Counted from the first letter of the stretch, positions 1-63,998 are shown. The stretch: DNA of 64,000 bases from Euglena gracilis (GCA_039621445.1 CP154954.1:8000634-8064633); one strand, 5' to 3'. A program made the numbers and translations. Notes: generated from the sequence alone by a model not told the origin.

Positions 1-35
1 TGAAACAAAAGCTGGATTTATTTCAGGCTGAGATT

Positions 36-1606
36 TTGGTGATGAAAAATCAGCAAGCTGAATCTGCCAAATCTGCGACAGTGGATCTGACAAAGGAAAC
101 GAGAGAAAAATCAGCTGGAAACCCAGAAATCGACGAGTTTGATCTTTTTGGTTGCAATGATTTACCTGTGATCGAGAAAAATCTGGTTGAAATTGAAGAC
201 TATGAATACGCTGAACCAGGGTCACATGCGACACATGTCAGGCAGGTTTGTGCACGACCTGTGGGGGCAGTGCCTGCAGGTGCAGGGCTGGTTTCATCAA
301 ATGCAGTGGTAACGCATCAATTGATGAAAAACCTGGTAGCTCCAAATTTTTCTGGACAGCCAAAAGACTGGTCGTCCTTTGTGCGGGATTGGGATCAATA
401 TGTCAGGACGTTGGTTATTTTGCAAAATGGACATGTGTCTGATTCACTCAAACTTCGGCTTTTTGCAATGACGCTGGACGACACAAATAAAAAGGAATTG
501 CAATCCCGAATGGAATTCAACCGAAAAACATCTTTCGACGAGGAATTTGACAGGATTGACGGGAAAATGCTGGAACTCAGTCCGACTGTGCCAGAAAAAA
601 ATGGAATGATGTCCACCTTGTGAACCAAGGGAAAATTACTGTACGGGAATGGCAAGACTTTGTCATAAATTTCAAAATGGCCTGGAGACAGGTGAAAAGC
701 GCCACTGACGATGAGGCAGAAAGACTGGTCAAAGGAAAACTGCCAAATTTCATTTTGCATTGGGTCGCCGATGAGGAGGAAAGGAAATCAACGTGTGGAC
801 CGAAAGTCAAAATGTACCCTGGAGTGCCAGCAACGGAGGAAAACATTATTTGTGCTGTGGAACGTGTCACTGGGGAAAAGCCCTGCAAGGTTTCGAAAGT
901 TTCACCGCTGGAGTTCGAAGTCTTTTTGCCCTATACTACGATTTGCTACAAACTGAAAGAGGTCAGTGTGAAACCAATCACAGGCACGGATAAAAGAATC
1001 AAAATTGTGGAGGAACAGTCAAAAATGTGAGCTGAAGAAATTTTCCGTTTTGTTGAGCGAAAATTGTCATCCAGGGATAATCAAGACATGTTACACAGTT
1101 CCGGAGAGCCAAATGGGTCCGGAAACCGGAGGGCCAGGACTGAAAAGGCAGATCGGGCCAAGGGGTCCAGGACACCCTCCCCAGCACGGTCAGCAAAGGG
1201 GGGCGAAACGGTGGTAAAACCGTCCGTTGAAAAATCAGATTCACAGGTGGCAGCTCCGGCGACCGATGCAAACGCGAACCCCCAAGTGCAAAATCCAGTG
1301 CCAGTGGTTCGATCACAGTCATATTCACCCCCCCAGCAATCTCAATTTGGCAATGGGGGTGGATGGAGAAACGATTCTGGGAGGAATTCCAATGCCAATG
1401 CCAATTTTCAGGGAAATCAGTGGTGGCACTCAAATCAACAGAATTTTGATTCACAGTTTGGTGGTGGCAAAGGCAAAGGCAAAGGAAAGGGCAAAGGAAA
1501 CAATTCTTGGGGGAAAGGAAACAATGGAAATGACTGGTCTAGGGGAAAGAGCCAAGATGGTGGAAAAGGCAAAGGCAAAGGAAGGGGGAAAGGAAACCGT
1601 TGCTAG
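36..1606 (+). pseudogene. gag: gag-like region (disrupted) with Gly/Lys/Asn-rich C-terminus
   Basis: ORFs 36-623, 620-1030 and 1064-1606. Contains 'APNFSGQPKDWSSFVRDW' (capsid-like PxFxG motif) and a GKGKGK tail; lies upstream of pol. Confidence 0.7.
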
Positions 1607-1870
1607 GATAGCCGGGGTGGACCGTTGGGGGCGGGGGCCGCCCCGGGCTCACATACCCAGCCCCACACAAAGACATACACAAATCCCAGGTGGCATGAAA
1701 AATCTCGTGCGAGTGAAACCACGATGAAAAATCTGCCATCCCAGGAGATCTCTGCACAAGGTGTGTCCAGTGTGTCGGGTGCGTGCCTGCGTGACGTGCA
1801 AATCTGTGACTCGGCCCAAATCTGTAAAGAATCAGACCTCATAAGAGGTCGTGCACAGCCTTCCGTAAGG

Positions 1871-2465
1871 AAAAGAGCTTTAGACTTTTTTTGCGGTAAA
1901 GGCTCGGTTGGGGATTGCCTGAGAGAGCAGGGGTTTAAGGTTGTGTCAGTGGACATAAACCCCAGATTTAACCCAACCCACTGTGCAAATATTTTGGAGT
2001 GGAGATATTGGAGGTAACCCCCCCGGATATTTTCAGATCATCGCTGCGGGGGTGCCCTGTACAGAATATAGCTTGGCCAAAACGTTGGGAGTCAGAAATT
2101 TGGAGGAGGCAGATCGGCTGGTCAAAAAAACTTTGGAAATTGTCGAATATTTCGACCCAAAGTTGTGGTGGATTGAAAATCCCCGTCATGGGTTGCTTCG
2201 AAAAAGACCCTGTGTTCAAAATCTGACCTTTGTCGATGTTGATTATTGTCAATTTTCAGAATGGGGATATCAAAAGCCCACCCGAATCTGGGGGAGCGAA
2301 AATCTGAGCAAGCTACAAAACAAACTTTGTGATGGCCAGACCTGCCCGAATTTGATTCCTGGGGGGAGGAGTCACCAAGAAAATTTGGGAGGATATGGAA
2401 TGACAGTTGGTACTCAGAAAAAATGGAGGGTGCCCAAACAACTGGTGGAGTATTTGTTAACCGTG
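1871..2465 (+). pseudogene. C5 cytosine DNA methyltransferase domain in the Gypsy polyprotein (one frameshift near 2012)
   Basis: Motif I LDFFCGKG, motif II VSVD, catalytic motif IV GVPC (~2055), motif VI WWIENP (~2175), YCQF..GYQKPTRIW, and C-terminal RVPKQLVEYLL. Confidence 0.9.
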
Positions 2466-2489
2466 TTGGAACGAAAAAGCGGATATCGT

Positions 2490-2890
2490 AGGGAGCATTA
2501 TGCTGTTAGGAAAGTTTGTATGGAGGAAATTGAGAAGGAATTTCGGGTTAAGGCGTAACGGGATTGTTTTGCAACCAGCCAAAATGCCAGGTGTGAAAAG
2601 TTTTATGGGGAGGATGATGATGCCACGAAAAAGGAATGGGGGGCGGAGGAAACGTTGTGGATGAACCCCCCCTGGACTTTGTGGCCTGAGGTGGCTGAAA
2701 AATTGCAAAATTCCAATTGTCGGGCAATTTGTATTTGCCCAGACTGGAATAGGAGGTGGGTGAGAAATCTGGTGGCTATTGCTGTCAAAAAGATTTATTT
2801 TCCCAAGGGGACAAAGTTGTTTGAGGCTGATGGGTGGATTTTGAGGGGTACCCGTTGGGGGGTGTGGGCCTTGTTGATTGATAGAAGGCA
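2490..2890 (+). pseudogene. Dam-like amino-methyltransferase domain (phage Dam / DIRS-type, likely N6-adenine)
   Basis: In frame with the C5 domain and protease across a TAA at 2556-2558. Reads RDCFATSQNARCEKFY...DDA...W...LWMNPPW (NPPW at 2664-2675)...ICICPDWNRRW. Confidence 0.8.
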
Positions 2891-2999
2891 ACCCTCCCAG
2901 GGGGGGGCAGCCCCAGGAAAGAAAAAATTGGTGCGGCTGAAAAAAAGAATGTTGAGGGGGACAAACACTCGGGGAGGAGCAAAGAAACTTGGGGAGGAC

Positions 3000-3400
3000 A
3001 GACAACTGCTGTTAAAAACACAGATACGGTTGGCAAATGGGGAGGAAAAAACGGCCAGAATTTTAATTGACACGGGGGCTGAGGCAAACCTCATTCGACA
3101 AGGGTTGATAGGGGACCACCTAATGTATCCTGCTAAGGACCCGTTAAGGTTTGAAACAGCCAATGGGCAAACTTTGGCGGGGGGGAGCAGATGTGCTAAG
3201 GTGAAAATGATCCTTCAACAAAATTCGAATGAGGAAAGGGAAATTGAGTTTGTGGAATATGAGGTTGAATTTTATGAGGCAAACATCAAAGTTGATGCCA
3301 TTCTTTCTTATCCATGGTTGGCGGAGGCAAAACTGGGAATTTTTCCACACCACAAGGCATTGGTGAAAGACAGCCCCGACCTGATTTTTTTGCGGGGTGT
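3000..3400 (+). CDS. Retropepsin-type aspartic protease domain
   Basis: ARILIDTGAEANLI catalytic DTG motif and downstream DAILSYPWL (D-x-ILG-like). Confidence 0.9.
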
Positions 3401-3699
3401 TGAAGGACGGAGGGGTCCGCAAAAATTCAGGGATGACACAAATGTTTTAGTGGACAATGTGACTGTGGCGGACGGGTCTTCGTTTGGGTTGCAAAAACTT
3501 GGTCTTTGTTTGCCATTGGAAGGGTTGGACCAGGACTTGCAATTTTTGAGTGACGAGGACTTGGGGGAGGTTGCCACAAATTTGGAAGGAAGTGACCCCC
3601 CAGTGCAAGTTGTCAACCGAATGATAATTGCAAGGGAGGGGGAGGACAAAAAAGAGGAGGAACGGGTAGTCAAGTTGAGGGAACAAGTTTTGGAAGATT

Positions 3700-4500
3700 A
3701 CCGGGGGACGGTATTTCGGTAATCGCCATTTCCAGACCCCCCCCGAAAGAGGACAATATGGTTATGCATACATACCTTTGAAGGAGGGGGCAAAGCCAAC
3801 CAGACAGAAGCCTTTTTTCATGTATGCTGAGAGGAAAGAGGAACTTGAAAAAATCACCCAAGACTGGCTCGACAAAAAAATACATTGAGCCAGCCACAGC
3901 CAAAAATTCTGAATGGCTGTCCCAGACTTTTCCAGTTCCAAAAAAATCCAACGATTCTCCTTGGAGGGGGGTGGTGGACCTCAGGGGCCCAAACAGCCAA
4001 ACAAGGCGATGCAACTACCCCTTACCCAAAATTGAAGACATTTTGGTCAAACATGGTGCAAACCAAATGTTTTCGATCATTGATTCAAATCAAGCTTTTC
4101 ACCAACAACCTTCACACCCAGAAAGTCGACCCATAACGTGTTGTTTCACCCCCAAAGGGATTTTTCAGTGGAGGGTGAACGTAATGGGTTTGACAAATGC
4201 CCCCCAACAATTTCAGCAAATGATCGATGACCGTTTGACACCAGTAAGGGATATCGCCACAGGGGACATAGACGACATACTGGTGTGGACAACGGTCGGG
4301 GAAGGGGAGGATCTAGTGGGGGCACATGAAAAAGATTTGAGGAGAGTGTTGGAAGTGCTCAAAACAGAACTTTTGGTGGCTGATGAATTCAAAGCCAAAC
4401 TTTTTGTGGAGGGGGTTTAATTTTGTGGACAGATTTTAGGAAATGGGACTAGGAGGCCTGCACCGGGTAAGCTACGAGCGATCGAATAGTGGGAGGTTCC
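3700..4500 (+). pseudogene. pol: Gypsy reverse transcriptase (inactive)
   Basis: WRGVVDLRGPN, YPLPKIEDIL, GIFQWRVNVMGLTNAP. Catalytic YxDD is mutated to DIDD; internal stops. Confidence 0.93.
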
Positions 4501-5160
4501 AAAAACAATTACGGCTTTGAGAGCCTTTTTGGGATTCACAAATTATTACAATGCATACGTTCACATGTATGCGGAAGTAGCTGCCCGGCTGCAAGACAAA
4601 TTGAAAGTCCCTAGGGAGGTGGGAAAGAAAGGAAGTCGAAAACCTGTGGAATTTGATGGGGAGGTTTTAAAAGCTTTTGAGGAGCTGAAAAAATGGTTGT
4701 GTTCGGGCCTAATGTTGCAACCGGTAGACCCAGATAAACCCTTTGTGCTAAGGGTAGATGCCAGTGGGTACGCCGTGGGGGGAACGTTAGAGCAAATGAA
4801 GGAGGGGGGCCCACAGCCCAAGATGTGATTGAGAAAAAAACTGTGCCAGTGGCTTTTATGTCTCGAAAATTGACCGAGGGGCAAAGAAAATGGACCCCCA
4901 GGGAGTTGGAGACATATGCCATAATTTTGGCACTACAAAAGTGGGAGAGTTGGATTGGATTGCAACCCGTTTTGGTTTTAACCGACCACCAAAGTTTGGA
5001 GTCTTGGACAAGGGAAGTCCTGGACACCCCCAGTGGTCCGGTTGGGAGGAGGGCGAGATGGCACCAAATTTTCTCCAAGTATGATTTGACGGTGGGATAT
5101 ATCCCGGGTAAAGAAAATACCATAGCCGACATTATTAGTCGGTGGGCATACCCAGCTTCA
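4500..5160 (+). pseudogene. pol: RT connection and RNase H
   Basis: LRAFLGFTNYY, VDASGYAVGG, ELETYAI, TDHQSL, NTIADIISR. Confidence 0.92.
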
Positions 5161-5699
5161 CAGGCCCTAAGGGATATAAGTAAGCATGGGTCAGCCGAAG
5201 ACAAGGATGAAATGGAAAATTTTATCCGGGAGGAAAAAGAAGAGGAAAAACAGTGTTTGGAGATAAGAATCAAAAACCAGCCCAATTTACGTAATGCCTG
5301 GATACGGGGGGTGACAACCCGTAGTGGCAAAAACGTAACACCTGAGGAGGAAAAAGGAGAGTGCACAAGGAGGGGAACCGAGGGTGGGGTAGACCCAGGA
5401 GGAAAAGACACCCCTGTGGACACCCACTCACAATGGCCCAGGAAAGAAAAGAAACGGGTTCATTTTTGGGATGAGAAAGTGGGGGGGGGAGACGACCCCT
5501 GTCCCGGAGACGGCTGAAAGTTCGAGGGGGGACACTCGTATGGAAGTGGGGGACGCCCTGCCAAGTAAGACCCCTAAGGATATTAAGCCCGTATGGGAGC
5601 GTGATTGGGGGGAAGCATATTCCCAATGCCCCACATGGAAAGAAAAATGGGTAGCTACCAAAGGCGATTCAATTTGGCCAACGGGCTTCAAAGAGCTAA

Positions 5700-6690
5700 A
5701 TGGCCAATTGCTTTTTGAAGAAAAGTTGTGTGTGCCGGAAAGTTTTCAACACTTGGTGATTCAAGAACTTCACGAGTGTTTGGGGAACGTTGGCCCTGAA
5801 AAAGTTGGAAACACATGGCAATCCGTTTTGTTTGGGCTGATGAAAAGGCTGCAAAACAACTCAACCAAAAGTGCAGCAAAAATTGTTTCACATGCCAAGC
5901 GAGTGTGAGGGGGAAGAGTTTGAAAGGACCGATCGAGTCCACACCCATACCCCCTGCACTAATGACAAGTGTTGCCATCGATTTGTTTCGAATGCCAAGG
6001 GTTTTACACGATGGGGGGGAGTATGACACCCTAGCCCTTTGTGTGGATAGGCATTCGGGATGGATTGTGGGGGTTGCATGCAAGGACAAGGGATTAACCG
6101 GTGCCAAGTTGGCTAAGGAAATGGTGAAAAATCAGTGGAGGCCTTTTGGGGTTCCCTCGGTCATCTCAAGTGACCAAGGGAGCCGTTTCACAAGAACTTG
6201 GTGGAAAAACATGTGTGCACTTTTGGGGATTAGGCAAGCATATTCCCAAGCATACCACCACCAAGCAAACGGGAGGATTGAGAGAGCCGGACAACAGGTA
6301 ATGGAGGTGTTGAGAAATTTGTACGTGAAAGAAAAAATTAATTGGGTTGAAGCTTTACCCCAAGCTGTGGACCGAATTCACGACGTAAAGGGGGAAAGTG
6401 GGTTCAGCCCATATGAAATTCTACATGGGAGGGAACGACCATTAGCAGGGGTACCCTACCAACCACCCAAAGAATGTGAGGATTCGGTGGATTTTTTCCG
6501 AAGGATGCAAGACATTGATGGGAGGGTGGCTAGGATACTCAACAAAAAGCATGAGGAGGAGGTGGCAATGATAAATAAGGGGAGGAAAGAAATGGAACCC
6601 CTAAAGGTGGGGATGATGGTTTGGTATAGGAGACCCGAAGGGTCGGGTGAGAATCTGACTGTAGGTGGGTGGGACCTGGGGTCGTGAAGG
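5700..6690 (+). pseudogene. pol: Integrase (degenerate Zn-finger plus DDE core)
   Basis: H..CFTC Zn-binding remnant, VAIDLF, ISSDQGS, YHHQANGRIER, SPYEILHG. Confidence 0.92.
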
Positions 6691-6842
6691 GTAGAGAAGG
6701 GGAACGAAGTTATGTAATCGAAATGAAACCTGGGGTGGAGACAAAAGCTCATAGGAGTTTTTTGAAGGAGTATCGGGAACCCCAAGTTAAAGGGAAAGGG
6801 GTGCCTTTTTATATTATAAACGTACCGAAAAAGAAGAAGAGG

Positions 6843-7068
6843 CATTACCTGATCAGTGGGAGGTGGAGAAAATTCTAAGGCATCGGAAAGGAAAGGATGG
6901 AAAGTGGGAGTTTTAAACAAAGTGGGTCGGATATGAAGACGGAGAGCAGACCTGGGAACCGGCTGGGAATTTTATTCACAGGTTCAGTTGGGAGTTTGTG
7001 AAGTATTGCCGTGAGAAAAAAGTGAAAATGGACATAATGTCCGAACTTAAAATTGACGGTGGGCCGTA
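6843..7068 (+). pseudogene. C-terminal chromodomain
   Basis: Manual translation WEVEKILRHRKGKDGKWEF*TKWVGYEDGEQTWEPAGNF fits the chromodomain consensus (EVE.IL...W.GY....TWEP). Confidence 0.88.
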
Positions 7069-7827
7069 GGCTCTAAGGTGAGCCATAAGGCCCTGTCCAA
7101 GGCTTTCTACCTTTCTCTACCTTTCAGGAGTGCAAGGGGCACCTCAGTGCATTCGCCGCCGCATTGCTATTATATTTCCCCCCACTGCGCTCATTGCCCC
7201 ACCGCACTATCTATATTTGCCGTCCCCTCCTCTTCCCTCCCGATGTTGTTAGGGTTTGGAGATTGATTCTTTGAGATGATGGGTTACATTGTGGTTGGGA
7301 GTCCTTGGTCACATTATGAACCCCCGTTCGGTTTGACAAAAATCCCCCCGACCTGAGGAGAGGGGGGGGGGCATGATTTTTTTGACAAAAATCCCCCCGG
7401 CCCGAAAATGGGGGGGTGCGCTTGATTTTTTGACAAAAATCCCCCTGCCCGAGGAGGGGGGGGGGGCTTGACGAATTTGAACCAAAAATCCTCCCGACCC
7501 GAAGGGGGGGGGGCGCCAACCGAAATTTTACCAAAAACCCCCGACCCGTTGGAAGGGGAGGGGAAGATCTTGGTGAAGACCCTCATACCACCCGTGGAAG
7601 CGGGGGGAGGGGCAGCCTAATACTCGTTGGTTGGTGAACCGAGTCTTTCCCAAAGGTTTGAAGGCACTTGAAAGCCATAGTCCCTGAAGTTTGTTTCCCA
7701 TTTGTTGATTCAAGGGAGAATGGGTGGGGGACATAGGCTTTGGATGAAATAGTGCCGAATGGAGGATTTTCCCTCTGTTGTTGAGGAACGGGGGGGGGGC
7801 GAATTTTTGGTGTCCGACTAAGGTCGC

Positions 7828-7838
7828 AAGGGAGGGGG
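7828..7838 (+). promoter_or_regulatory. Polypurine tract
   Basis: AAGGGAGGGGG immediately before TGTCGG. Confidence 0.7.
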
Positions 7839-8462
7839 TGTCGGCCGCCGGCTTTCGCCGGCAGCCAAAAATTGCCAGAAAGCGTAAATTACAAAGTCGC
7901 GGGTAACAGCCAATCAGTTAGAGAAACCCGCGACTTAAATTGGAAGCGGGTCAAATTTCTAAGCGCCTTCAAATTTGTCATTTTTCACAGAACTTGAGGG
8001 GTTTTCCCCATTATTTGGCAAAGAGGAAATACATTGAATTGGATTTGATCAATCACATTGTTTAATTGGAATTGACAGTTACATTGTTGGTCATTACATT
8101 GTTGGTGGAGTTGTTGAAGTCAATTTGGTATTGAAATCAAGAAGGAGACCCTACAACACCGCCACCCTCACCGCCGCTTCTATTCCCTATACCCCTCTTC
8201 CTTGCCCCAGGTTGTTTTTTTTATCACATTCAGTCACTCTCACAGATTTCCAACAGTGTGATTGCTTCTCCAGTGGGTTGGAATTCATTTCAGAATTCAG
8301 TGGGTTGGTTTTTCCTTCAAGGTGTGCAAGAGAGTGTGAGAGAGAGAAAGAGAGAAAAGTGAGATTTCAGAGAGAAAAGTTCTATTTCATTGCAAATGGC
8401 AGATTTTTCGGTGTTCACCAAATTTTCAGAAAACATTACAAAAACGATCCTACGCACCGGCA
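7839..8462 (+). repeat. Putative 3' LTR (~624 bp)
   Basis: Starts TGTCGG after the PPT and ends CCGGCA (TG...CA with imperfect 6-bp inverted ends). No partner LTR in the window to confirm. Confidence 0.6.
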
Positions 8463-9139
8463 GGGGTTGGGGAAAATACCTGAGTGAAACAAACGGGGGT
8501 TGGCTTGAGCCCACCAACCCGGCCCCACCCCGGAAAAACCCCCCCCTCGGCTGTTGGTGCGTTTCCACGACGGCGAGGCCCCCCCGGGCCCTCGGCCCAC
8601 CGGGACTCGCCGGTCGCGGGGGCGACCGGCGGCGCACAGGGGGTGGGGCCGGCGAACAAACGAAACGCTTGTTGTGCATGGACAAAAAGACACACTACAA
8701 CAACGGTGGTGGCGCGAACCGAGTCCACCGACCAGAGGCACAGCCTACTGGATTTGATGTGTTCCAGGGGTAAGGCTATGTACAGAAGCGATAGTCTGTG
8801 CTAGGGCCAGGCGATGGGAGGGCAGGGAAAAGGGGAAAAGATGTGAGCTAAAGAAGGGTGCGAGGTGGGGCCGCGATTGATCGGCTGCCGGAGTGGCTTC
8901 CGGGCACTAGTTCCTCAGATTGTAGTTGAGGAAGATGGTGGATCCTCTGCCACGTGGGTCATCATGCGTCGCTACGGGGCTCGCTGTTTTGTTTACACCG
9001 CCGCCGGAGATGGAGGACTGTCGTGCCCGCATGTGCACATGCGCACCGAGAGGAACTTTTCCCAAGCCTTTGGCGGTTATCGGGCAGTCTCTCACCGAAG
9101 GGCTGCGTTGTAAAACGCGGGTCATTGAAGGGGGGCGTT

Positions 9140-9810
9140 TGGCCGGACCAACCTAACCGGCTGGCCGGACCAACCTAGCCGGCTGGCAGACCAACCTAGC
9201 CAGCCAACATGCCGGCTATCCAGACCAAACAACACGCACGCCGTACGCAGTGACGTCTGAATCAGGAATGAATGTGTGCACCGGAGGGGGACTAAGTTGA
9301 AGCCCGAAGTGCACCCGGGTGAACGTTCGGACAGAAATACGGCCCGCCTGTTGGCTTTAACCCGCACGGGAGGACAAAAGACGTACCGGCCGAAGGCCCC
9401 CCCGCCCAAAAAAACCTGTGGCCACTCGTTCGCCTCGTTGGGAAAATATCGCCAGCAAATGTGGCAAAAAACATGGCCACCCATCTTTCCAAAACTGCCC
9501 ACTACAAACCCTCCAATACTTACCCATTTGCCCACTACAAACCCTCCAAAACTTACCCATTTGCCAGACGCAAAAACCGAACCCCCCCAAATGTTTAGGT
9601 TTTTTGAGCAAGAGAAATTGTTGCACAGGAAAAAAAGAATGCAAAAAACAAAAAAAAACAAGTTTCAGAAGAAAACGAGCACCTCAGGACAAAAAGGTTT
9701 CTGGTCAAAATCTGGCACCATCTGGCCCAAAACTGGCCACCACATCTGGCCCAAAACTGGCCAACACATGTGGCCCAAAACTGGCCACCACCTGTGGCCC
9801 AAAAATCTTC
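9140..9810. repeat. Cluster of short tandem repeats (21-bp GGCCGGACCAACCTA.., 36-bp CCCACTACAAACCCTCCAA.., TGGCCCAAAACTGGCCA..)
   Basis: Direct tandem copies at about 9140-9205, 9495-9565 and 9710-9800. Confidence 0.75.
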
Positions 9811-10599
9811 AAAATCTTCAAAATCCCTTTCACATTTAGCACACTGGCACAATCTGAATGGGAGCTTTGCAAAAACAGACCGAAGTTCCTCGGTTTCCTT
9901 TGTTCTGGGGCTATTTTGTAAACAGAAACAAAAAGAAAAGGCAAGAAACAAAACAGTTCACAAAAAGTAAAACAGACCGACTTAAAGTCAATTCTGCAGT
10001 AACCAGCAGCATACGGCCAAAGAAGCCCCAGCACTGAGGCTAGAAGCACTGTCCACCAGCGTACATATGCTCTTGCAAACAGTTCTCCACTTCGCCTTGG
10101 TCTTTTCCTTGGACTTACAATGTTGTACAGAAAGTTGAAACTTGAAAACTTGTACTTTATAATCCCAGCTTGTAACTAGAACCCCACCGGGGGACATGTC
10201 AGCCATGTGACATGTCGAAAAAAAACATGCAGAAAAGCTACAAAGGACGGTTGAGAATTCACGGTGGGTAGCACAGCTTCACCCGAACCGTGCCCTGGGC
10301 CCAGGGTATCGTTTCTTTTGGCCCGCGCCACAAGAGGAACCCTCTTGTGACTTCCTGTGCCGCGGGTAGGTTATATCGCGGGTAGGTTATACTGATGGTA
10401 GTGTACACTGCAAGTATAGGCATTGTTGGCGGTCAGCTGGTTAGGAGACCGTGGGCAAGACCAACGATCCATATATATATACCTTGGCGGGGGGGGGGGG
10501 TGTTTGCATGGCGGGGTGTGTTTGTGTATGGTGCCCCTGCTTTTCTGCCCGTGGGCAAGACCCACTTCCTATATGTTACGTGGCGCGCGGCAAGGATTT

Positions 10600-11617
10600 C
10601 CTGCGTCGCAGACTTCTACTCAGGTGGGGCCCGGCGTGTGGGTGTGACCGACTACGCAATCGGCCCGCAACTATCCCTTGTCACCCCCGTTTTGGACGAA
10701 GTCAGGGGCAGGCTCGGAGCCAACCATGCCACCGTCACCACCTCCCTCAACAATCCACAACGAATCGCCTCCAAGGACCAAGAACCTGGGAAACAAAACT
10801 GGTGGAACCATGAGCTGGGCAAGAAGGCAATGGACGACCGGGACCAGAACCGCCTGCTTGAACAGGTCACGGGGTTTGGACACGGTTGGATGGCAGCTAC
10901 CCCCTCGAACAACTCCCACACCACCTTCTCCAGCGAAGAATACACCCTGGGACTGAAATGGTGGTTGAGCCTCCTGGTGTTGAATGACGTCAGCCAGCCG
11001 TGCACAGGATGCGGCCAACCCCTGGACAAGGAGGGCGACCACCTCCTCTTCTGCCGCAGGAACAACTTCGCAACACGCCACAACGCTGTATAGGACACCC
11101 TATTTCAAACATTGTCCAACAGCGGTCAGCGGGTGCAGAAGGAAGTTTCATTGCCGACAGCCAGAGACAGCCATCTCCGCCCGGCGGACCTCCTTCTGGA
11201 CTGCTGGTCTGAGGGGAAGCCGACAGCGCTGGACGTCACCGTCTGCCATGGATGGCAGGCTACAGAACTCACCGCAACCCGCGAACGCTGGAGATCCTTC
11301 CTAAAGAGGAGGGAGGACGCCAAAAAGCAGAAATACAACATCCCATGTCAGCAAGCATGGTGGGGCTTCACGCCTTTCGCCCTCGGGACATGGGGCGGCA
11401 TGGGACCGGAAACTGCCAGGACACTGAGCAGAGTGGCCAAACGTGCCTCGTCCTGGCAGCAGGGCGCTGAGCGCGAAATCAAGGAGGCGGAAATCTACCA
11501 AAACGTGGCCATCGCCCTGATACGAGAGGTATTCCACCTCCTACAACCCAAGCACCTACTCCGTTAAGAAAGAAGAAGAAGAAGAAGAAGAAGAAGAAGA
11601 AGAAGAAGAAGAAGAAG
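10600..11617 (+). mobile_element. 5'-truncated CRE-like (RLE) non-LTR retrotransposon with (GAA)n tail
   Basis: CTGC..H..C..RHNAV Zn knuckle, RPADLLL..PTALDVTV..K endonuclease motifs, FTPFALGTWGG. Stop at 11567 is followed by a GAA run. Confidence 0.88.
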
Positions 11618-11923
11618 GGCAACACAGCACACACACAACAACACACACACAGAGAGAGACAACGACAAACCGCCCCCCCCCCCACCCCCCCCAAACCCCC
11701 TCTTTCAAACCCGCCGACGACCATACCACACGGTTTGTAGCACCGCCCTGCCCTCCCCCTGCGCTTTATATTGAAGATGGGCCTTGCCCATTTTCCTCCC
11801 GCTGAGCCCGGCGACAGTTGACACCTCGGACTATCCATGGGGTTCCCCCATCTGTACATAGCCTCCGACACCCCTGAACACTCAAAACCAGTAGGCTGTG
11901 CCACTGGTCGGTGGACTGAGTTC

Positions 11924-11949
11924 AATTTCTGAGTGTCAATTTTTTTTCG
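11924..11949 (+). other. Genomic copy of the euglenid spliced-leader exon
   Basis: AATTTCTGAGTGTCAATTTTTTTTCG versus Euglena SL ACTTTCTGAGTGTCTATTTTTTTTCG (24/26, SL recalled from memory). No GT donor follows; ATG lies 13 nt downstream. Confidence 0.8.
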
Positions 11950-13935
11950 CCTTCCGCATAACATGGCCGGAAAGCCCCAGACGGGGTCCAAGAGCATCGT
12001 CGCCGCCCTGACCACGCAGACTGGAACCAAGCGGAGACTCGACATGGAGGTGGACTGTGAAGACCCTGCGTCACGTCGCAGACTACTGCAGACTACTGGG
12101 CAGCCTGCTGCATGACGACGAGAACGAAGACGACGCCGTACTACCGTGCCGACGTGGTCGCCGCCGACAGTCAACTACTACTGACAGCCTGGGTGCATAT
12201 TTGAGCTTGCAAAAGCTCTCCACGTCACATTTGGGCTTGAAAAAGCCCCAACCTTCAATATTGGGCCTGCAAAAGCCCCCTCTGGAAGCCGTCTCAAAGT
12301 CTGGAATATTGGGTTTGCAAAACCCTCCACTGGAATCGGCTCTCCCTCCTCATGTATTGGGCCTGCAAAAGCCCCCCAGAAAAAGCCTGTCAGCCTTTTG
12401 GACCTGCCAAAGCCTTTTTGCAGTCAACATTGCAGCAATTATTGGCCTAATTTTCTCATTGGCCCCCATAAGTCAGCAACCATCCATTCATGCCTCAGAG
12501 TCACACTGATGTTTGGCTCCTTCTTTCTGGCATTGGGACCAGTACCATCCCCATCCACCATGTTGAGTTCGCACCCAGCCTTCAACTCCTCAGTTTCCCC
12601 GACCCCATCTACACCACAACCTGAACCATCACCTTCTGGTGCTGTGGCTCTATCGACATCTCCCACCTTGGCTGTGGTTACATCGACATCTCCCACTCAG
12701 GCTCTGGCAGCATCGACACCCCTCACTCCAGCTGGGGACTCCCTGCCCAAAACCTTCTGCAGTTGGGGGACCATGACCTGCCCAGCTATCAGTTCCATTG
12801 GGACCCAAGTGGGTGGACCCAGATGCAGGGTCAGAGATCAGGGGTCACAGACCAATGCATCCCAGGCTGCCAGGCCAAGACCCCCAGCTCAACCAAAGCC
12901 TACCAAGGTTGATGCCATTGATGTGGAAGGCCTACAACCCAAGACCAACCCTGGCCCTGTACTGAGACCCTGGTCCATTCATGAGCCACCACCGTTGAAC
13001 CACTACACAGCTGAACATCTCACAACCTTTGGCTCACCAACAAGACCGCCACCTTCAATGTCATCCTCCAGCATGCCCTCATCAGAGTTCAATTTGGTCC
13101 AGGCTACCCTCAACCTGTACATCAACCTCAACCCCAGCTCCCTCAACCCCCACACCAACCCCATCATCCAGTTCAACCACGCTACCAGCCAAGACCCATC
13201 AACCCAGCGGACTGGTCCCAGAAGGACCTGGTGATGGACATCCCGCAGCTGCTGCATTGAGGAAGCAGACCCAACCAGGGAAATGCTCATGGTGGCCAAG
13301 GGGCCAATGACAGGAGAGCCCAGTTCAGGAGGGCCCTCTTTGTCAAGTCCACTGCTGGCATGGTCTCTGGTCACATGACACCACATTTGTTCCCCTCTAC
13401 CATAGTTGCTGATTCACATGTCCCCTACCCCCCAGCATAATGTCTGGCTACTGCCTTTCATTTCTTTGGGATTGTTGTCAGAACACTGGGGTTGGATGAT
13501 GACTTTCATACTCGTTGGCTACAACAAACTTTTATGAGGCATTCCCCCCATCCTGCTTGGCTTTTGCTCCAACAAACACTTCTGAGGCACACACCTTCAA
13601 ACCACTCAACCCAATCAATCAGTGGCCTTCTGGGGACTGACACCAGAGCTTCCCCATCTGAGACCCACACATTTTGGCCCTGACCCTCAGCCATCAACAG
13701 CCCACCCAGTACTGCATCCTGGCCCAGTACACCCTGGCCCAGCAGTTTATATCTATCATTGTGGGCCTTGTGGGCCTTTGGAGCAGTTCCTCAACTGCCC
13801 ATAGATCCAGGACTTCCTCCACCGGTGTGCCCTTATGGCCCTGCTCAACCTGTTCAGCTGATCAGACAACCCAGAGCCCCCCCCCCCCGGCATCAATATT
13901 CGAAGAAATATCTCCCTGCAACGAACATTTCAGCC

Positions 13936-14265
13936 CCAGCCTTTTGTTTCATCCGTGCCCAAAATTGTCATCAGCTTAGCACCCCCAGACATCGGGAAAT
14001 TCCAGCCAGTTTTTTCATCCCTGGCCAACATTGTGATCAGTTTGGCAACCCCAGAGCTTTGAGAAAACCAGCCTGTTGTTCCATCCCTGACCAACTTCGT
14101 GATCATTTTTTCAACCCCAGGGCTCTGAAAAAACCAGCCTGCTGCTCCATTCCTGGCCAACATTATGATCAGTTTGGCAACCCCAGAGCTTTGGAAACAC
14201 CAGCCTGTTGTTCCGTTCATGTCCGACATTGTGACCAATTTTCCAACCCCAGAGCTCTGGAAGCA
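13936..14265 (+). repeat. 66-bp tandem repeat x5 (22-aa unit)
   Basis: CCAGCC recurs at 13936, 14002, 14068, 14134 and 14200. The open frame reads PACCSIPGQHCDQFGNPRALEK-like units. Confidence 0.9.
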
Positions 14266-14514
14266 TGGAATCACTTAAATGCACTTTTTGACCGTTTGTG
14301 GCCCCCCTCAGCATCCCAGTGCCCTTCGGGCGCTGTCCGCGGGGACTTTTCCGAAGTAGGGTCTGTTTCTCGTTTTGGCAGGCTCGAAGTTCGTTCAGTT
14401 GTGGGCTGAGGTGTAGTGGCCGTAGGGGTGTGCACGGGGGTCCGCAGTAACGGTGGGGGCCACGCAAGGAAGGTGGGTATCGGAGTGGTCCTGGTTTTTC
14501 TTCGATGTAGACGT

Positions 14515-14556
14515 TCACTCCTCACCTGCGGAGACGTGGAAGAAAACCCAGGACCC
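14515..14556 (+). other. 2A-like ribosomal skipping (StopGo) peptide SLLTCGDVEENPG|P
   Basis: Exact D(V/I)ExNPGP motif; identical to the last 14 aa of T2A; in frame with the downstream RT region. Confidence 0.88.
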
Positions 14557-17500
14557 GCAGCACCCACGACGGCGCAAAACAAGTCATGCAAACGCAAGGA
14601 ACGATCCAGCTCCGCCTCCACTCGAAGACCAGCAGACAACGCAGACACCACTGACCGCCTGAACGACCTAGCCCACCCATGGGAAGGCAGAGACGCAGCA
14701 ACCGTAGCAGACTCGGCGGGCAACGAAAGCAACCTGAGAAACAACGCCAGATGCGGGATAACCATCAGTGCGAGACCTTGCCCAATTGAGGACATCCTAC
14801 AGCTCCGCGTGAACACCATCCTGCATGTCCCCGCAACTCTCCAAACCACGATATGAGACATCCTTGGAGCCGCCCTCGACGCATACACAAGCAACCCAAC
14901 CGACGACGGGCTCTGTGCAATCCTGGCTTTCCCCAGATTGGTGCTCCACACAGTAAATGCGAAAGGTACACACGCCCCCGATGAACTCGCCTCGGCAATT
15001 GGAAGACGAAACGGCCTGTTCCGATCCGGCGAGTACGGCACGTTACTGACAGAGCTCCACTCAGCACAGAAATCCGCAATTTCAAACGCCACAGCGCTAA
15101 TTAAAACCAGAGCGGAAAAACGGGCAAGAACAGAACCCTCCAGCCTACCAGACCGAACCCTGCAGAGAGTCAAAACGCTCACAGGGGAAGGAGGCCCAGC
15201 CAAAGCACTCCAACTATTACTCTCCGAAGGTTCCCACAAACCACAGGACCCACAGGTGTGGAACAAACTGGAAGCCCTTCACCCAAACGGTAAGCCGGTG
15301 GACCTGAACAACCTCCCCGCCAAGATGACACCGTTCCAGGAAGGACAATCAATCTCGTGGGAACCAATCCTGCATGAGGCAATCATTGAAATTCCCTCGG
15401 ACTTCATCCCCAGGACCTTCTGGGCTCCGCCCTGCTCACCTGCAAGACGCAATCAAGCGCCCAGGCAGAGGAGCACAGCTAATTACAGCACTCGCCAAAC
15501 TGACCAACACCTGGGTGAATGGGGACCTCCCTGCTGCACACTCCCCGTTCTGGTGCGGCGCCCACCTGACTCCGCTCAGAAAAAAGGATGACGGTGTCAG
15601 ACCGGTGGCAGTGGGTGAGACCATACGGAGGTTGATTGGCAAAGCCCTCTTGGCAACAGGCACGGCAAAAGACCAGGTCAGCAAGCTCCAACCCACACAA
15701 GTCGGCGTTGGGGTCACAAATGCAGCAGAATCAGTGGCAGTAGGCTTTCAGCACCTGGTGCACAAACTGGACCCAGCCGGCAATTGGGCAAGTTTGCAAC
15801 TGAACTTCTCCAACGCCTTCAATTGCATAGACAGGTCACACCTGCTGCTCGAGGCAACAACCACCATAACCCCCTGCCTCTTCAACCACCTCAACTTCGC
15901 GTACAAGAACCCTGCCCTCCTATTCTGCGCTGGCAAAATCCTCTGGTCCCGCTGCGGAACTAACCAGGGCTGCCCACTTGGCCCAGTCGGCTTCTGCGTT
16001 GGTCTGCAACCTCTGGCAGAGACCATCAGAAACAAAGCGGAGCTACTCTGGAGTTCGTGGTGTCTGAATGATGGTATCATGGTAGGCCAACCCGACAAAC
16101 TGCAGAAAGTCATCTCCTTCCTCCAGGGCGAAGCCACACGCCGCGGACTCCAACTGAACCTCCGAAAGTGTGTGGTATGGGGGCCAGCTGGCAACCTAAT
16201 CACCTCCGCACCAGATATGACCGTCATACCATGGCAAGAACATTCAGGGATCACGTATTGGGAGTTCCAGTGGAATTCCCTACAAGCCACCAAAAGACAG
16301 CTGAAGCGTGGGTTGCGGCCACACGGAAAATTGAACACGCAGCAGACATTGTAACCCAAATGACAGATGCCCAAATTTCTCATCACCTGCTACGCTCCTG
16401 TCTTGACGGTTGCAAAGTGAACCACCTGCTCCGCGCCTCCAACAGCTACCTCTGTAAAGAAGCAGTCACCCGATCTTCGGAAACCATTCTTCAAGCTTTT
16501 GAGAACGTCGTTGGAGTGCCTCTGAACACCACACAGAGACTGCAAGAAGCACTGCCACTCACCCTCACACAACCAAGCAGCGGAACGTACAGCAGCCCTT
16601 TGTGCCTTTTACACAGAAGGATATCAGCCAATCAGTTTGCCTCAGTATGCAACAGACCCAGTTGCAGATCTCATTGAACTACCACTCAAAAACTTGTGTG
16701 CTGCCCTGCCCAACCACTCGACAGCCCGAAGACTGCTGGGGAATCTGGCCCACACCAAGACCTCCGGAAAAAATGAACAATCCCAAAAATGGTGGTCCAC
16801 AGAAATAGGAAAAACCACAATGGACAACCTCATCAACCAATGCAAACCACGAGACCAGGCCTGCCTTTTGGAACAATCCTCAGGAATTGGACATGGTTGT
16901 ATGGTCTCTCCACCGTCCCCCGCCCTGCACACTGTCTTCTCAAGTGATGAGTACTGTCTTGGCCTCAAATGGTGGCTCGGAATGCCCATCATAGACGACG
17001 ACACGCAGAAATGCCAAGGCTGCCCCACTGGACAGGGAAGGGGACCACCTCATCTGTTGCCCACGAAACAACTTCACTGTCAGACACACGGCTGTTCAGG
17101 ATGCAATTTTCACCCTCCTATCCTCCACAGGCCAAGGTGTCCAGAAGGAAGTCACAATCCCCAATGCCCCCGATGCCAATCTGCGCCCCGCTGATCTCTT
17201 ACTGGCATGCTTCCAGGATTGCAAGCCCACAGCCCTCGACGTCACGATCTGTCATGCATGGCAGATCCCAGAACAAAATACCTCACGGGAACGATGGAGG
17301 TCTTTTCTTCGACGCAAATAATCTGCCAAGCAAACTAAATATGACGTCACCTGCCAAAATGCAGGTTGGTCTTTCACCACCTTGGCAATGGGCACATGGG
17401 GAGGCCTCGGCCCAGAGGGCGCCCGCTTGCTCGGTCGCATCTTCAAACGAGCCACGGCGAGGCAAGAAGGAGAAATAGGGGAACTCAAGCAGGCCGAAGG

Positions 17501-21709: not shown

Positions 21710-63998
<42,289 letters not shown>

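Follow-up and report, generated by a model that had tools for sequence, protein, structure and literature searches.

A decayed Ty3/Gypsy-type retrotransposon of Euglena gracilis with two predicted methyltransferases at the start of pol

Layout and decay of the element

The stretch analysed here (the window) comprises 64,000 nt of Euglena gracilis DNA (CP154954.1:8000634-8064633), and its first part, positions 1–7066 on the + strand, is taken up by a retrotransposon truncated at the 5′ side by the edge of the window. Domain assignment from stop-to-stop reading frames, Pfam scans and tblastn against intact relatives gave the order gag-like region, C5 cytosine methyltransferase, Dam-like domain (PF05869), protease, reverse transcriptase (RT), RNase H, DDE integrase and chromodomain. 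First in pol comes a minimal C5 DNA methyltransferase (about 210 amino acids) and then, after a very short linker, a Dam-like methyltransferase of about 135 amino acids. Such a tandem, upstream of the protease in a Ty3/Gypsy element with a DDE integrase, had been proposed in an initial annotation made from the sequence, and it was borne out by Pfam, tblastn and the motifs. Long terminal repeat (LTR) retrotransposons of E. gracilis that encode a DAM, a DNA methyltransferase (DNMT) and a chromodomain have been named EpiLTRs in a preprint (bioRxiv 10.64898/2026.05.21.726589, 22 May 2026), and this combination, which defines the EpiLTR, is found within one LTR-type element in the window copy as well as in its intact relatives. 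With high confidence we regard 1–7066 as a dead, 5′-truncated copy of a high-copy, Ty3/Gypsy chromovirus-like retrotransposon of the EpiLTR type, with both methyltransferases in pol.

All features described below are encoded on the + strand. The gag-like region (3–1606), cut by the window start, was recognised by its position only: it consists of open frames with a Gly/Lys-rich tail, no Pfam family was matched in a Pfam scan of 3–1606, and in-frame stops lie at 1028–1030 (TGA) and, just before pol, at 1604–1606 (TAG). The C5 methyltransferase follows in two parts, an N-terminal one in frame 2 (1877–2014; 54–64% identity in tblastn to the intact relatives P0121 and P0123) and a C-terminal one in frame 3 (2019–2480; PF00145, E 8e-4; 62% identity to P0121), separated by a +1 frameshift at 2015–2018. 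The Dam-like domain occupies 2487–2890 (PF05869, E 4.7e-10). Downstream of it lie an aspartic protease (2997–3341, with DTGAE at 3069–3083; PF13975/PF13650, E 1e-3; 66% identity to the P0121 protease), the RT (3763–4423; PF00078, RVT_1, E 1.3e-12; frameshifts near 3720–3820 and a stop at 4418), RNase H (4709–5106; PF17917, E 2.7e-17, and PF17919; frameshift near 4810) and the DDE integrase core (5800–6687; PF00665, rve, E 6.6e-10; frame changes at about 5490, 5800 and 6657), and pol ends with the chromodomain (6833–7066; PF00385, E 5e-10, 39.6 bits), inside which a stop is present at 6914. The RT motif reads DIDD at 4265–4276 instead of YIDD. The succession of protease, RT, RNase H and integrase along 2997–6687, as seen by Pfam and tblastn, is the Ty3/Gypsy order, and Pfam matched both an rve DDE integrase and a C-terminal chromodomain, which are likewise Ty3/Gypsy traits; the assignment of the RT to Ty3/Gypsy rests on the Ty3-typical Pfam families PF17917 and PF17919. 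No tyrosine recombinase family was matched by Pfam in any scanned piece of 1–7066, no second RT was found there by Pfam or tblastn, and tblastn of pieces of the element against the window gave no second copy. With an rve integrase and no Pfam match to a recombinase, the element does not fit a DIRS identity. Just 3′ of pol, blastn of the flank showed a diverged tandem repeat (7332–7563; offset about 97 bases, 76% identity, with C and G runs) that could be part of the 3′ untranslated region or of the LTR.

The window copy is dead and can make neither enzyme. Comparison with the intact relatives by tblastn placed changes of reading frame at about 2016, 3720–3820 (twice), 4810, 5490, 5800, 6657 and 6806; clear in-frame stops in pol lie at 2556, 4418, 4487 and 6914, and two more (3720 and 3779) lie beside frameshifts. 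The decay of the copy had been recognised in the initial annotation, which named two of these lesions. The frameshift, put at about 2012, is real and does fall in the C5 domain, but its exact site is 2016/2017, where one extra base makes a TAA (2015–2017) that ends frame 2 downstream of motif I and ahead of the PC motif. A TAA does occur at 2556–2558 as well, but it does not separate the two enzymes: it sits within the Dam-like domain, which begins near 2487–2490 with a conserved E.Y.VR helix.

Contigs of public sequencing runs were aligned to positions 1600–3800; contigs only were used, so that depth proportions are rough. Run X1 is DNA, X20 is an RNA library, and X15 and X18 are guessed to be RNA. 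As many as 7153 contigs of X1 mapped to these 2.2 kb, which makes this a very abundant family. The extra base at 2016 was present in 97574/99187 of the depth in X1 and missing in only 1613/99187; it was missing from single contigs of X15, X18 and X20, a hint that the copies seen in the RNA-type runs are open at 2016. At position 2556 other copies read G in 181551/181790 of the depth in X1 and in all of the depth in X15, X18 and X20. Because nearly all other copies read G, the TAA is private to the window copy. We also weighed a programmed frameshift at 2016 but dropped the idea: the site lies inside the C5 domain, the intact relatives are continuous, and the RNA-type contigs are without the extra base.

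The two methyltransferase domains

The C5 motifs I (FxGxG), IV (PC) and VI (ENV-like) are all present in the window copy, as FCGKG (1889–1903, frame 2), VPCTEYS (2052–2072, with PC at 2055–2060) and ENPR (2175–2186, with ENP at 2175–2183). The latter two are in frame 3, as are the further C5 motifs DYCQF (2241–2255), KPTRIW (2274–2291) and KWRVP (2421–2435). PF00145 matched the broken window copy with E 8e-4 to 1e-3 and 19.1–19.4 bits, relative to a cut-off of 22. Nine of ten scanned intact relatives matched this family, six of them above the cut-off (23.2–28 bits); the tenth, P0140, gave PF05869 only. The fold of the C5 domain was judged on the relative P0124 and not on the window copy. In the AlphaFold model of P0124 (77-row alignment) both methyltransferase domains mostly have a predicted local distance difference test (pLDDT) above 90; the C5 domain takes up about residues 170–385, and the linker to the Dam-like domain is about 6 residues long. 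Foldseek with the C5 domain of this model returned DNMT1, DNMT3A/B and M.HhaI at E about 2e-8 (2.3e-8 for DNMT1). By this model the C5 domain is predicted to have the catalytic fold of DNMTs.

The Dam-like domain shows DCFA (2562–2573), NPPW (2664–2675) and CPDW (2736–2747), all in frame 3. The motifs singled out for the two enzymes in the initial annotation (FCGKG, PC, ENP, KPTRIW, DCFA, NPPW and PDW) were thus all found in place. When the window copy was read through the stop with X, PF05869 was matched with E 4.7e-10 and 39.8 bits, well above the cut-off of 28.1; without the first helix of the domain the score was 32.3 bits. The two profile assignments foreseen for this copy fared differently, PF05869 passing its cut-off (39.8 vs 28.1 bits) and PF00145 staying below (19 vs 22 bits). 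All ten scanned intact relatives matched PF05869, six of them above the cut-off, with up to 49.4 bits. An AlphaFold model of the window's own Dam-like domain (134 amino acids, X at the stop, 25-row alignment) had a pLDDT of 94.3 and a predicted template-modelling score of 0.89, and its fold is a reduced, five-strand version of the class I S-adenosylmethionine (SAM) methyltransferase fold. The top structural match was PCIF1/CAPAM (Foldseek E 2.9e-5, template-modelling score 0.64; Z 10.9, root-mean-square deviation 2.6 over 123 residues), followed by Erm and DIMT1/KsgA (Z about 9; 9.0), E. coli Dam (Z 8.9) and T4 Dam (Z 8.7). The NPPW segment, as anticipated, is modelled as part of a methyltransferase fold. 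Only 13 chains reached Z ≥8, and the majority of the rows at Z 8–9 are rRNA adenine methyltransferases; judged from the model, the domain is closest in structure to N6-adenine methyltransferases with a class I fold. A search of PDB sequences with the domain gave four matches to a viral glycoprotein (E 0.17–0.23), which were discarded as chance.

These matches bear on the substrate. The Dam-like domain might not be a methylase of double-stranded DNA, and might instead have as its substrate RNA, such as the transcript or primer of the element, or the RNA:DNA hybrid that arises in reverse transcription, or be a noncatalytic SAM- or nucleic-acid-binding module. We consider this unlikely. In its favour, PCIF1, an mRNA cap-adjacent adenosine N6-methyltransferase, stands about 2 Z units above the next rows, the rRNA enzymes dominate those rows, the fold is a reduced one, and the authors of the EpiLTR preprint, whose E. 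coli assay for N6-methyladenine (6mA) was negative, themselves raise a hybrid substrate (bioRxiv 10.64898/2026.05.21.726589). By sequence, however, the domain falls into PF05869, whose name refers to DNA adenine methyltransferases of phages and bacteria; the Dam enzymes of E. coli and T4 match the model as well (Z 8.7–8.9), and a common fold does not show the substrate. Moreover, the preprint reports that DAM-LTR copies carry more 6mA in their DNA, in three species.

Relatives of the element and of its C5 enzyme

Searches with the read-through C5–Dam stretch yielded 116 proteins of comparable length and a further 52 that were longer. Domain mapping against the domains of P0121 located both methyltransferases in 43 of 179 fetched proteins, and uninterrupted polyproteins with exactly the domain order of the window are P0118 (1804 amino acids), P0121 (1763) and P0123 (1911). 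The expectation that both domains share one open frame in many members of the family is thereby confirmed. The best named relative is P0133 (EukProt, Euglena gracilis EG_transcript_113), with 95% identity over the Dam part and 74–92% along pol; it stems from a transcriptome assembly, so that a family member is present in a transcriptome. Among relatives at 26–78% identity to P0121, the C5 motifs PC..[YF]S, ENP, KPTR and FxGxG were kept in 97, 96, 92 and 79 of 99 C5 domains, respectively, and the Dam motifs NPP[WFY] and D.FA in 34 and 32 of 36 Dam domains. Selection was judged by this conservation, the relatives with DNA being only 39–50% identical in protein and saturated at synonymous sites; we take it as evidence that both enzymes have probably been under purifying selection.

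The order of the domains upstream of RT varies between relatives. Besides C5–Dam–protease, as in the window, we found protease–Dam–C5–RT (for example P0128, P0129, P0131) and Dam–C5–protease (for example P0134, P0140, P0146). A C5–protease–Dam order was observed in P0135 and P0144, and in the metagenome relatives both methyltransferases always lie upstream of RT. In a quick tree of the C5 domain (49 rows) the Dam-first and the C5-first forms make up two starred groups of 14 and 35 rows, and the window falls within a starred clade of 14 rows, all of the C5–Dam order. In 17 relatives, among them the full polyproteins P0155, P0154, P0149 and P0161, the C5 domain is followed by the protease after 37–199 residues, without a Dam match or an NPP motif; these C5-only forms are interleaved with the dual-enzyme forms on the C5 tree.

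The distribution of the two domains speaks to the possibility that they are foreign to the element, brought into one copy by a nested insertion (for example of a DIRS element with a Dam domain) or by an assembly chimera. The EpiLTR preprint warns that mixtures of DAM-LTR and DIRS elements in Euglena may be nested insertions or assembly artefacts (bioRxiv 10.64898/2026.05.21.726589), and the 17 relatives that pass from C5 to protease without a Dam domain would fit such an origin. Independent metagenome assemblies nevertheless give single open frames of 1763–1911 amino acids that run from a gag-proximal C5 domain to the chromodomain, the clade of 14 rows that holds the window is uniform in its C5–Dam order, 1–7066 contains neither a tyrosine recombinase nor a second RT, and only about 6 residues link the two domains in the model. 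A foreign origin in a single copy is, on these grounds, very improbable. A one-off insertion had been named as a condition under which the initial annotation would fail, and here the outcome mostly favours the annotation: dual-domain relatives are many, but the 17 relatives lack the Dam-like domain.

A metagenome scan with C5 signatures gave 114 relatives, 80 of which were kept. In eight of these the C5 domain has a protease or RT next to it, and the other 72 are stand-alone enzymes; 64 of these 72, in which the match covers most of the domain, are open frames of 194–344 amino acids with 31–45% identity over the whole domain. The stand-alone viral enzymes share the DYCQF and GY.KPTR.W signatures with the retroelement enzyme. 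Eight long contigs were checked and found to be densely coding, with 32–37% G+C. One of them (L080) carries Sputnik-type virophage capsid genes at 12497–15491 (PF21915 E 4e-86, PF22031 E 2e-53, V18/19 E 2e-36) together with a C5 gene at 6477–7040; another (L016) has a capsid N-terminal domain of the nucleocytoplasmic large DNA virus type (PF16903, E 1e-8, 10965–12383) and C5 at 5444–6082; and two more encode D5-type primase-helicases, at 5107–7533 in L045 (C5 at 9992–10702) and at 2473–4917 in L059 (C5 at 5540–6259). By gene content, the contigs with stand-alone C5 enzymes look like virophages or polinton-like viruses. A tailed-phage reading of these contigs was dropped: PHROGs gave no match for eight neighbours of the stand-alone methyltransferase of L016, and the capsid and primase matches pointed elsewhere.

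In a quick tree of 98 rows a starred branch sets the retroelement C5 domains apart; their side numbers 35 rows, of which two come from short contigs, and the label retroelement versus stand-alone needs 2 changes; the tree is unrooted and does not give the direction of transfer. In the ESM Atlas the C5 domain is placed beside viral PF00145 clusters of 213–222 amino acids (score 0.95). The closest stand-alone relatives of the enzyme of about 210 amino acids thus appear, from sequence comparison, to sit in virophage and polinton-like virus contigs. Unlike the window element, the viral enzymes are single genes in small double-stranded DNA virus genomes, without a Dam partner, protease or RT nearby. 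The preprint places the DNMTs of EpiLTRs as sister to DNMT4; here the nearest stand-alone relatives are viral.

The window is rich in retroelement debris. RT remnants unrelated to the element's family lie at 15329–16354 (+; PF00078, E 1.2e-8) and at 39011–39725 (+; weak tblastn, 27–42% identity). A long microsatellite-like array with a short unit and a spacing of 8–14 bases extends over 56542–58400 (154 overlapping 300-nt copies; G+C 0.645, GC skew −0.34, AT skew +0.63). Strong GC skew was also seen at 32001–34000 (+0.31) and 50001–52000 (+0.49), with long open frames on both strands and in several frames (33139–34180 and 50251–52211), which suggests that these stretches are low-complexity repeats. 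The observed/expected ratio of CpG is 0.57–0.72 in seven of the eight 8-kb bins of the window, with an excess of TpG/CpA of 1.18–1.42; this composition fits a heavily CG-methylated genome.

Known systems and a possible role

The dual-methyltransferase design of the Euglena element is already known and has been described as EpiLTR. The initial annotation, which knew of no such Gypsy element and of none in euglenids, was overtaken on this point. Beyond bioRxiv 10.64898/2026.05.21.726589, no other description of Euglena LTR retrotransposons with methyltransferases, or of EpiLTR, was found in literature searches for them. Nothing that defines the kind differs between the Euglena EpiLTR and the window element: both come from the same host lineage and have the same PF05869-type DAM, a C5 DNMT, a chromodomain and a Ty3/Gypsy-like backbone of the LTR type, and in both the NPP triplet is kept; the preprint reports this triplet as conserved and the DAM fold as a five-strand sheet. 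The sections of it consulted here are without the domain order of the Euglena elements, and in them we did not find the three domain orders, the C5-only relatives or the viral kin of the C5 enzyme. The EpiLTR of Cymbomonas tetramitiformis is likewise chromovirus-like with a DAM and a DNMT, the latter monophyletic with that of Euglena, but its DNMT is a 3′-terminal addition to pol, whereas the window element has both enzymes where pol begins, ahead of the protease. According to the RT and DAM trees of the preprint, the Cymbomonas and Euglena EpiLTRs were assembled independently.

Other retroelements share single features with the one in the window. KnitGypsy-Dnmt3 of Klebsormidium nitens also has a Gypsy pol with an in-frame C5 DNMT under purifying selection (PMC5890265); its Dnmt3 is derived from the host and, as described there, comes with no Dam domain, whereas the window element has a minimal DNMT of about 210 amino acids from another lineage, joined to a Dam-like domain. 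SymbioDIRS-Dnmt3 and SymbioLINE-DNMT of Symbiodinium are C5 DNMTs encoded by retrotransposons, and the CG methylation of their host is nearly complete (PMC5890265), but they are built on DIRS and LINE backbones with, in that account, no second methyltransferase, in contrast to a DDE-integrase Gypsy with two. DIRS retrotransposons with a Dam-like domain carry the same PF05869-type domain and differ in having a tyrosine recombinase in place of the rve DDE integrase and chromodomain of the window element. The LTR-borne DAMs are derived from DIRS elements, according to the EpiLTR preprint (bioRxiv 10.64898/2026.05.21.726589).

What the two enzymes would do in intact copies can be approached from their position. 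Because they open pol and the preceding gag closes in the same frame, with the TAG at 1604–1606, both would reach the particle as part of Gag-Pol. There the C5 and the Dam-like enzyme could methylate newly made cDNA or the pre-integration complex: the C5 enzyme would bring the cDNA to the CG-methylated state that Euglena DNA has by default, 6mA would be seeded by the Dam-like enzyme and then maintained as a permissive mark by the host AMT1, as in the model of the preprint (bioRxiv 10.64898/2026.05.21.726589), and the chromodomain would steer integration. That the enzymes travel in the particle and mark the element's own cDNA is the reading we put forward, tentatively and at somewhat less than even confidence. 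The initial annotation had likewise proposed a marking of nascent cDNA, with 5mC and 6mA/4mC by enzymes that the protease releases, which is plausible as a function. In its favour as to activity, SymbioDIRS-Dnmt3 methylates CG de novo in yeast (PMC5890265).

Several points weigh against the identification of the element and its enzymes or against this role. No long repeat elsewhere in the window pairs with the 3′ flank (7067–9500) in blastn as an LTR partner, the 5′ end lying off the window. The PF00145 matches in the relatives span profile positions 2–112 of 324 only, and the C-terminal half of the C5 enzyme appears atypical, with motifs IX and X only uncertainly identified. That the enzymes are packaged and cut free by the protease is an assumption made from their position only, and methylation by the C5 and Dam-like domains of this family is predicted from sequence and models. 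In the experiments published for comparable enzymes, retroelement DAMs gave no gain of 6mA in dam-deficient E. coli (bioRxiv 10.64898/2026.05.21.726589), and the SymbioLINE and KnitGypsy DNMT domains produced no methylation in yeast (PMC5890265). Finally, the preprint reports low LTR expression in E. gracilis, and many genomic copies may be frameshifted at 2016 and be without a working C5 enzyme.

The enzymes could also act in trans on the host genome and help to create or maintain the almost fully CG-methylated methylome of Euglena, as has been proposed for Symbiodinium. The abundance of the family (7153 contigs in run X1) and the presence of a member in a transcriptome assembly (P0133) would suit such an action, as would the near-default CG methylation of E. 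gracilis (bioRxiv 10.64898/2026.05.21.726589), the CpG depletion throughout the window (0.57–0.72 in seven of eight 8-kb bins) and the parallel argument made for the Symbiodinium retrotransposon DNMTs (PMC5890265). No enzyme of the element is needed for it, however, because Euglena has the host DNMT1 and DNMT5 (PMC12344493); LTR expression is low, and most of the genomic depth at 2016 carries the frameshift. We regard an action in trans as quite unlikely. A further reading combines several of the above: the Dam-like domain would be an N6-adenosine methyltransferase for the element's RNA or RNA:DNA hybrid, held in a two-enzyme cassette with a C5 enzyme of virophage or polinton-like-virus stock, and this cassette, having moved around the protease at least three times, would write both marks on replication intermediates before integration. 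It is a speculative proposal, to which we give little credence.

Marking of the element's own cDNA by enzymes carried in the particle remains our preferred reading. A retrotransposon that brings writers of 5-methylcytosine and 6mA together with a reader of chromatin suggests that mobile elements can determine their epigenetic state themselves, beyond suffering silencing by the host. For Euglena this point is already in print, and the window adds one more dead copy. The intact dual-enzyme polyproteins in many independent metagenome assemblies argue against the caveat, raised in the preprint, of nested insertion or assembly artefact. The viral link of the C5 enzyme and the permutation of the cassette merit a specialist's attention: the enzyme belongs to a minimal family of about 210 amino acids that virophages and polinton-like viruses have too, a hint that genes have passed between the DNA viruses of protists and retrotransposons.

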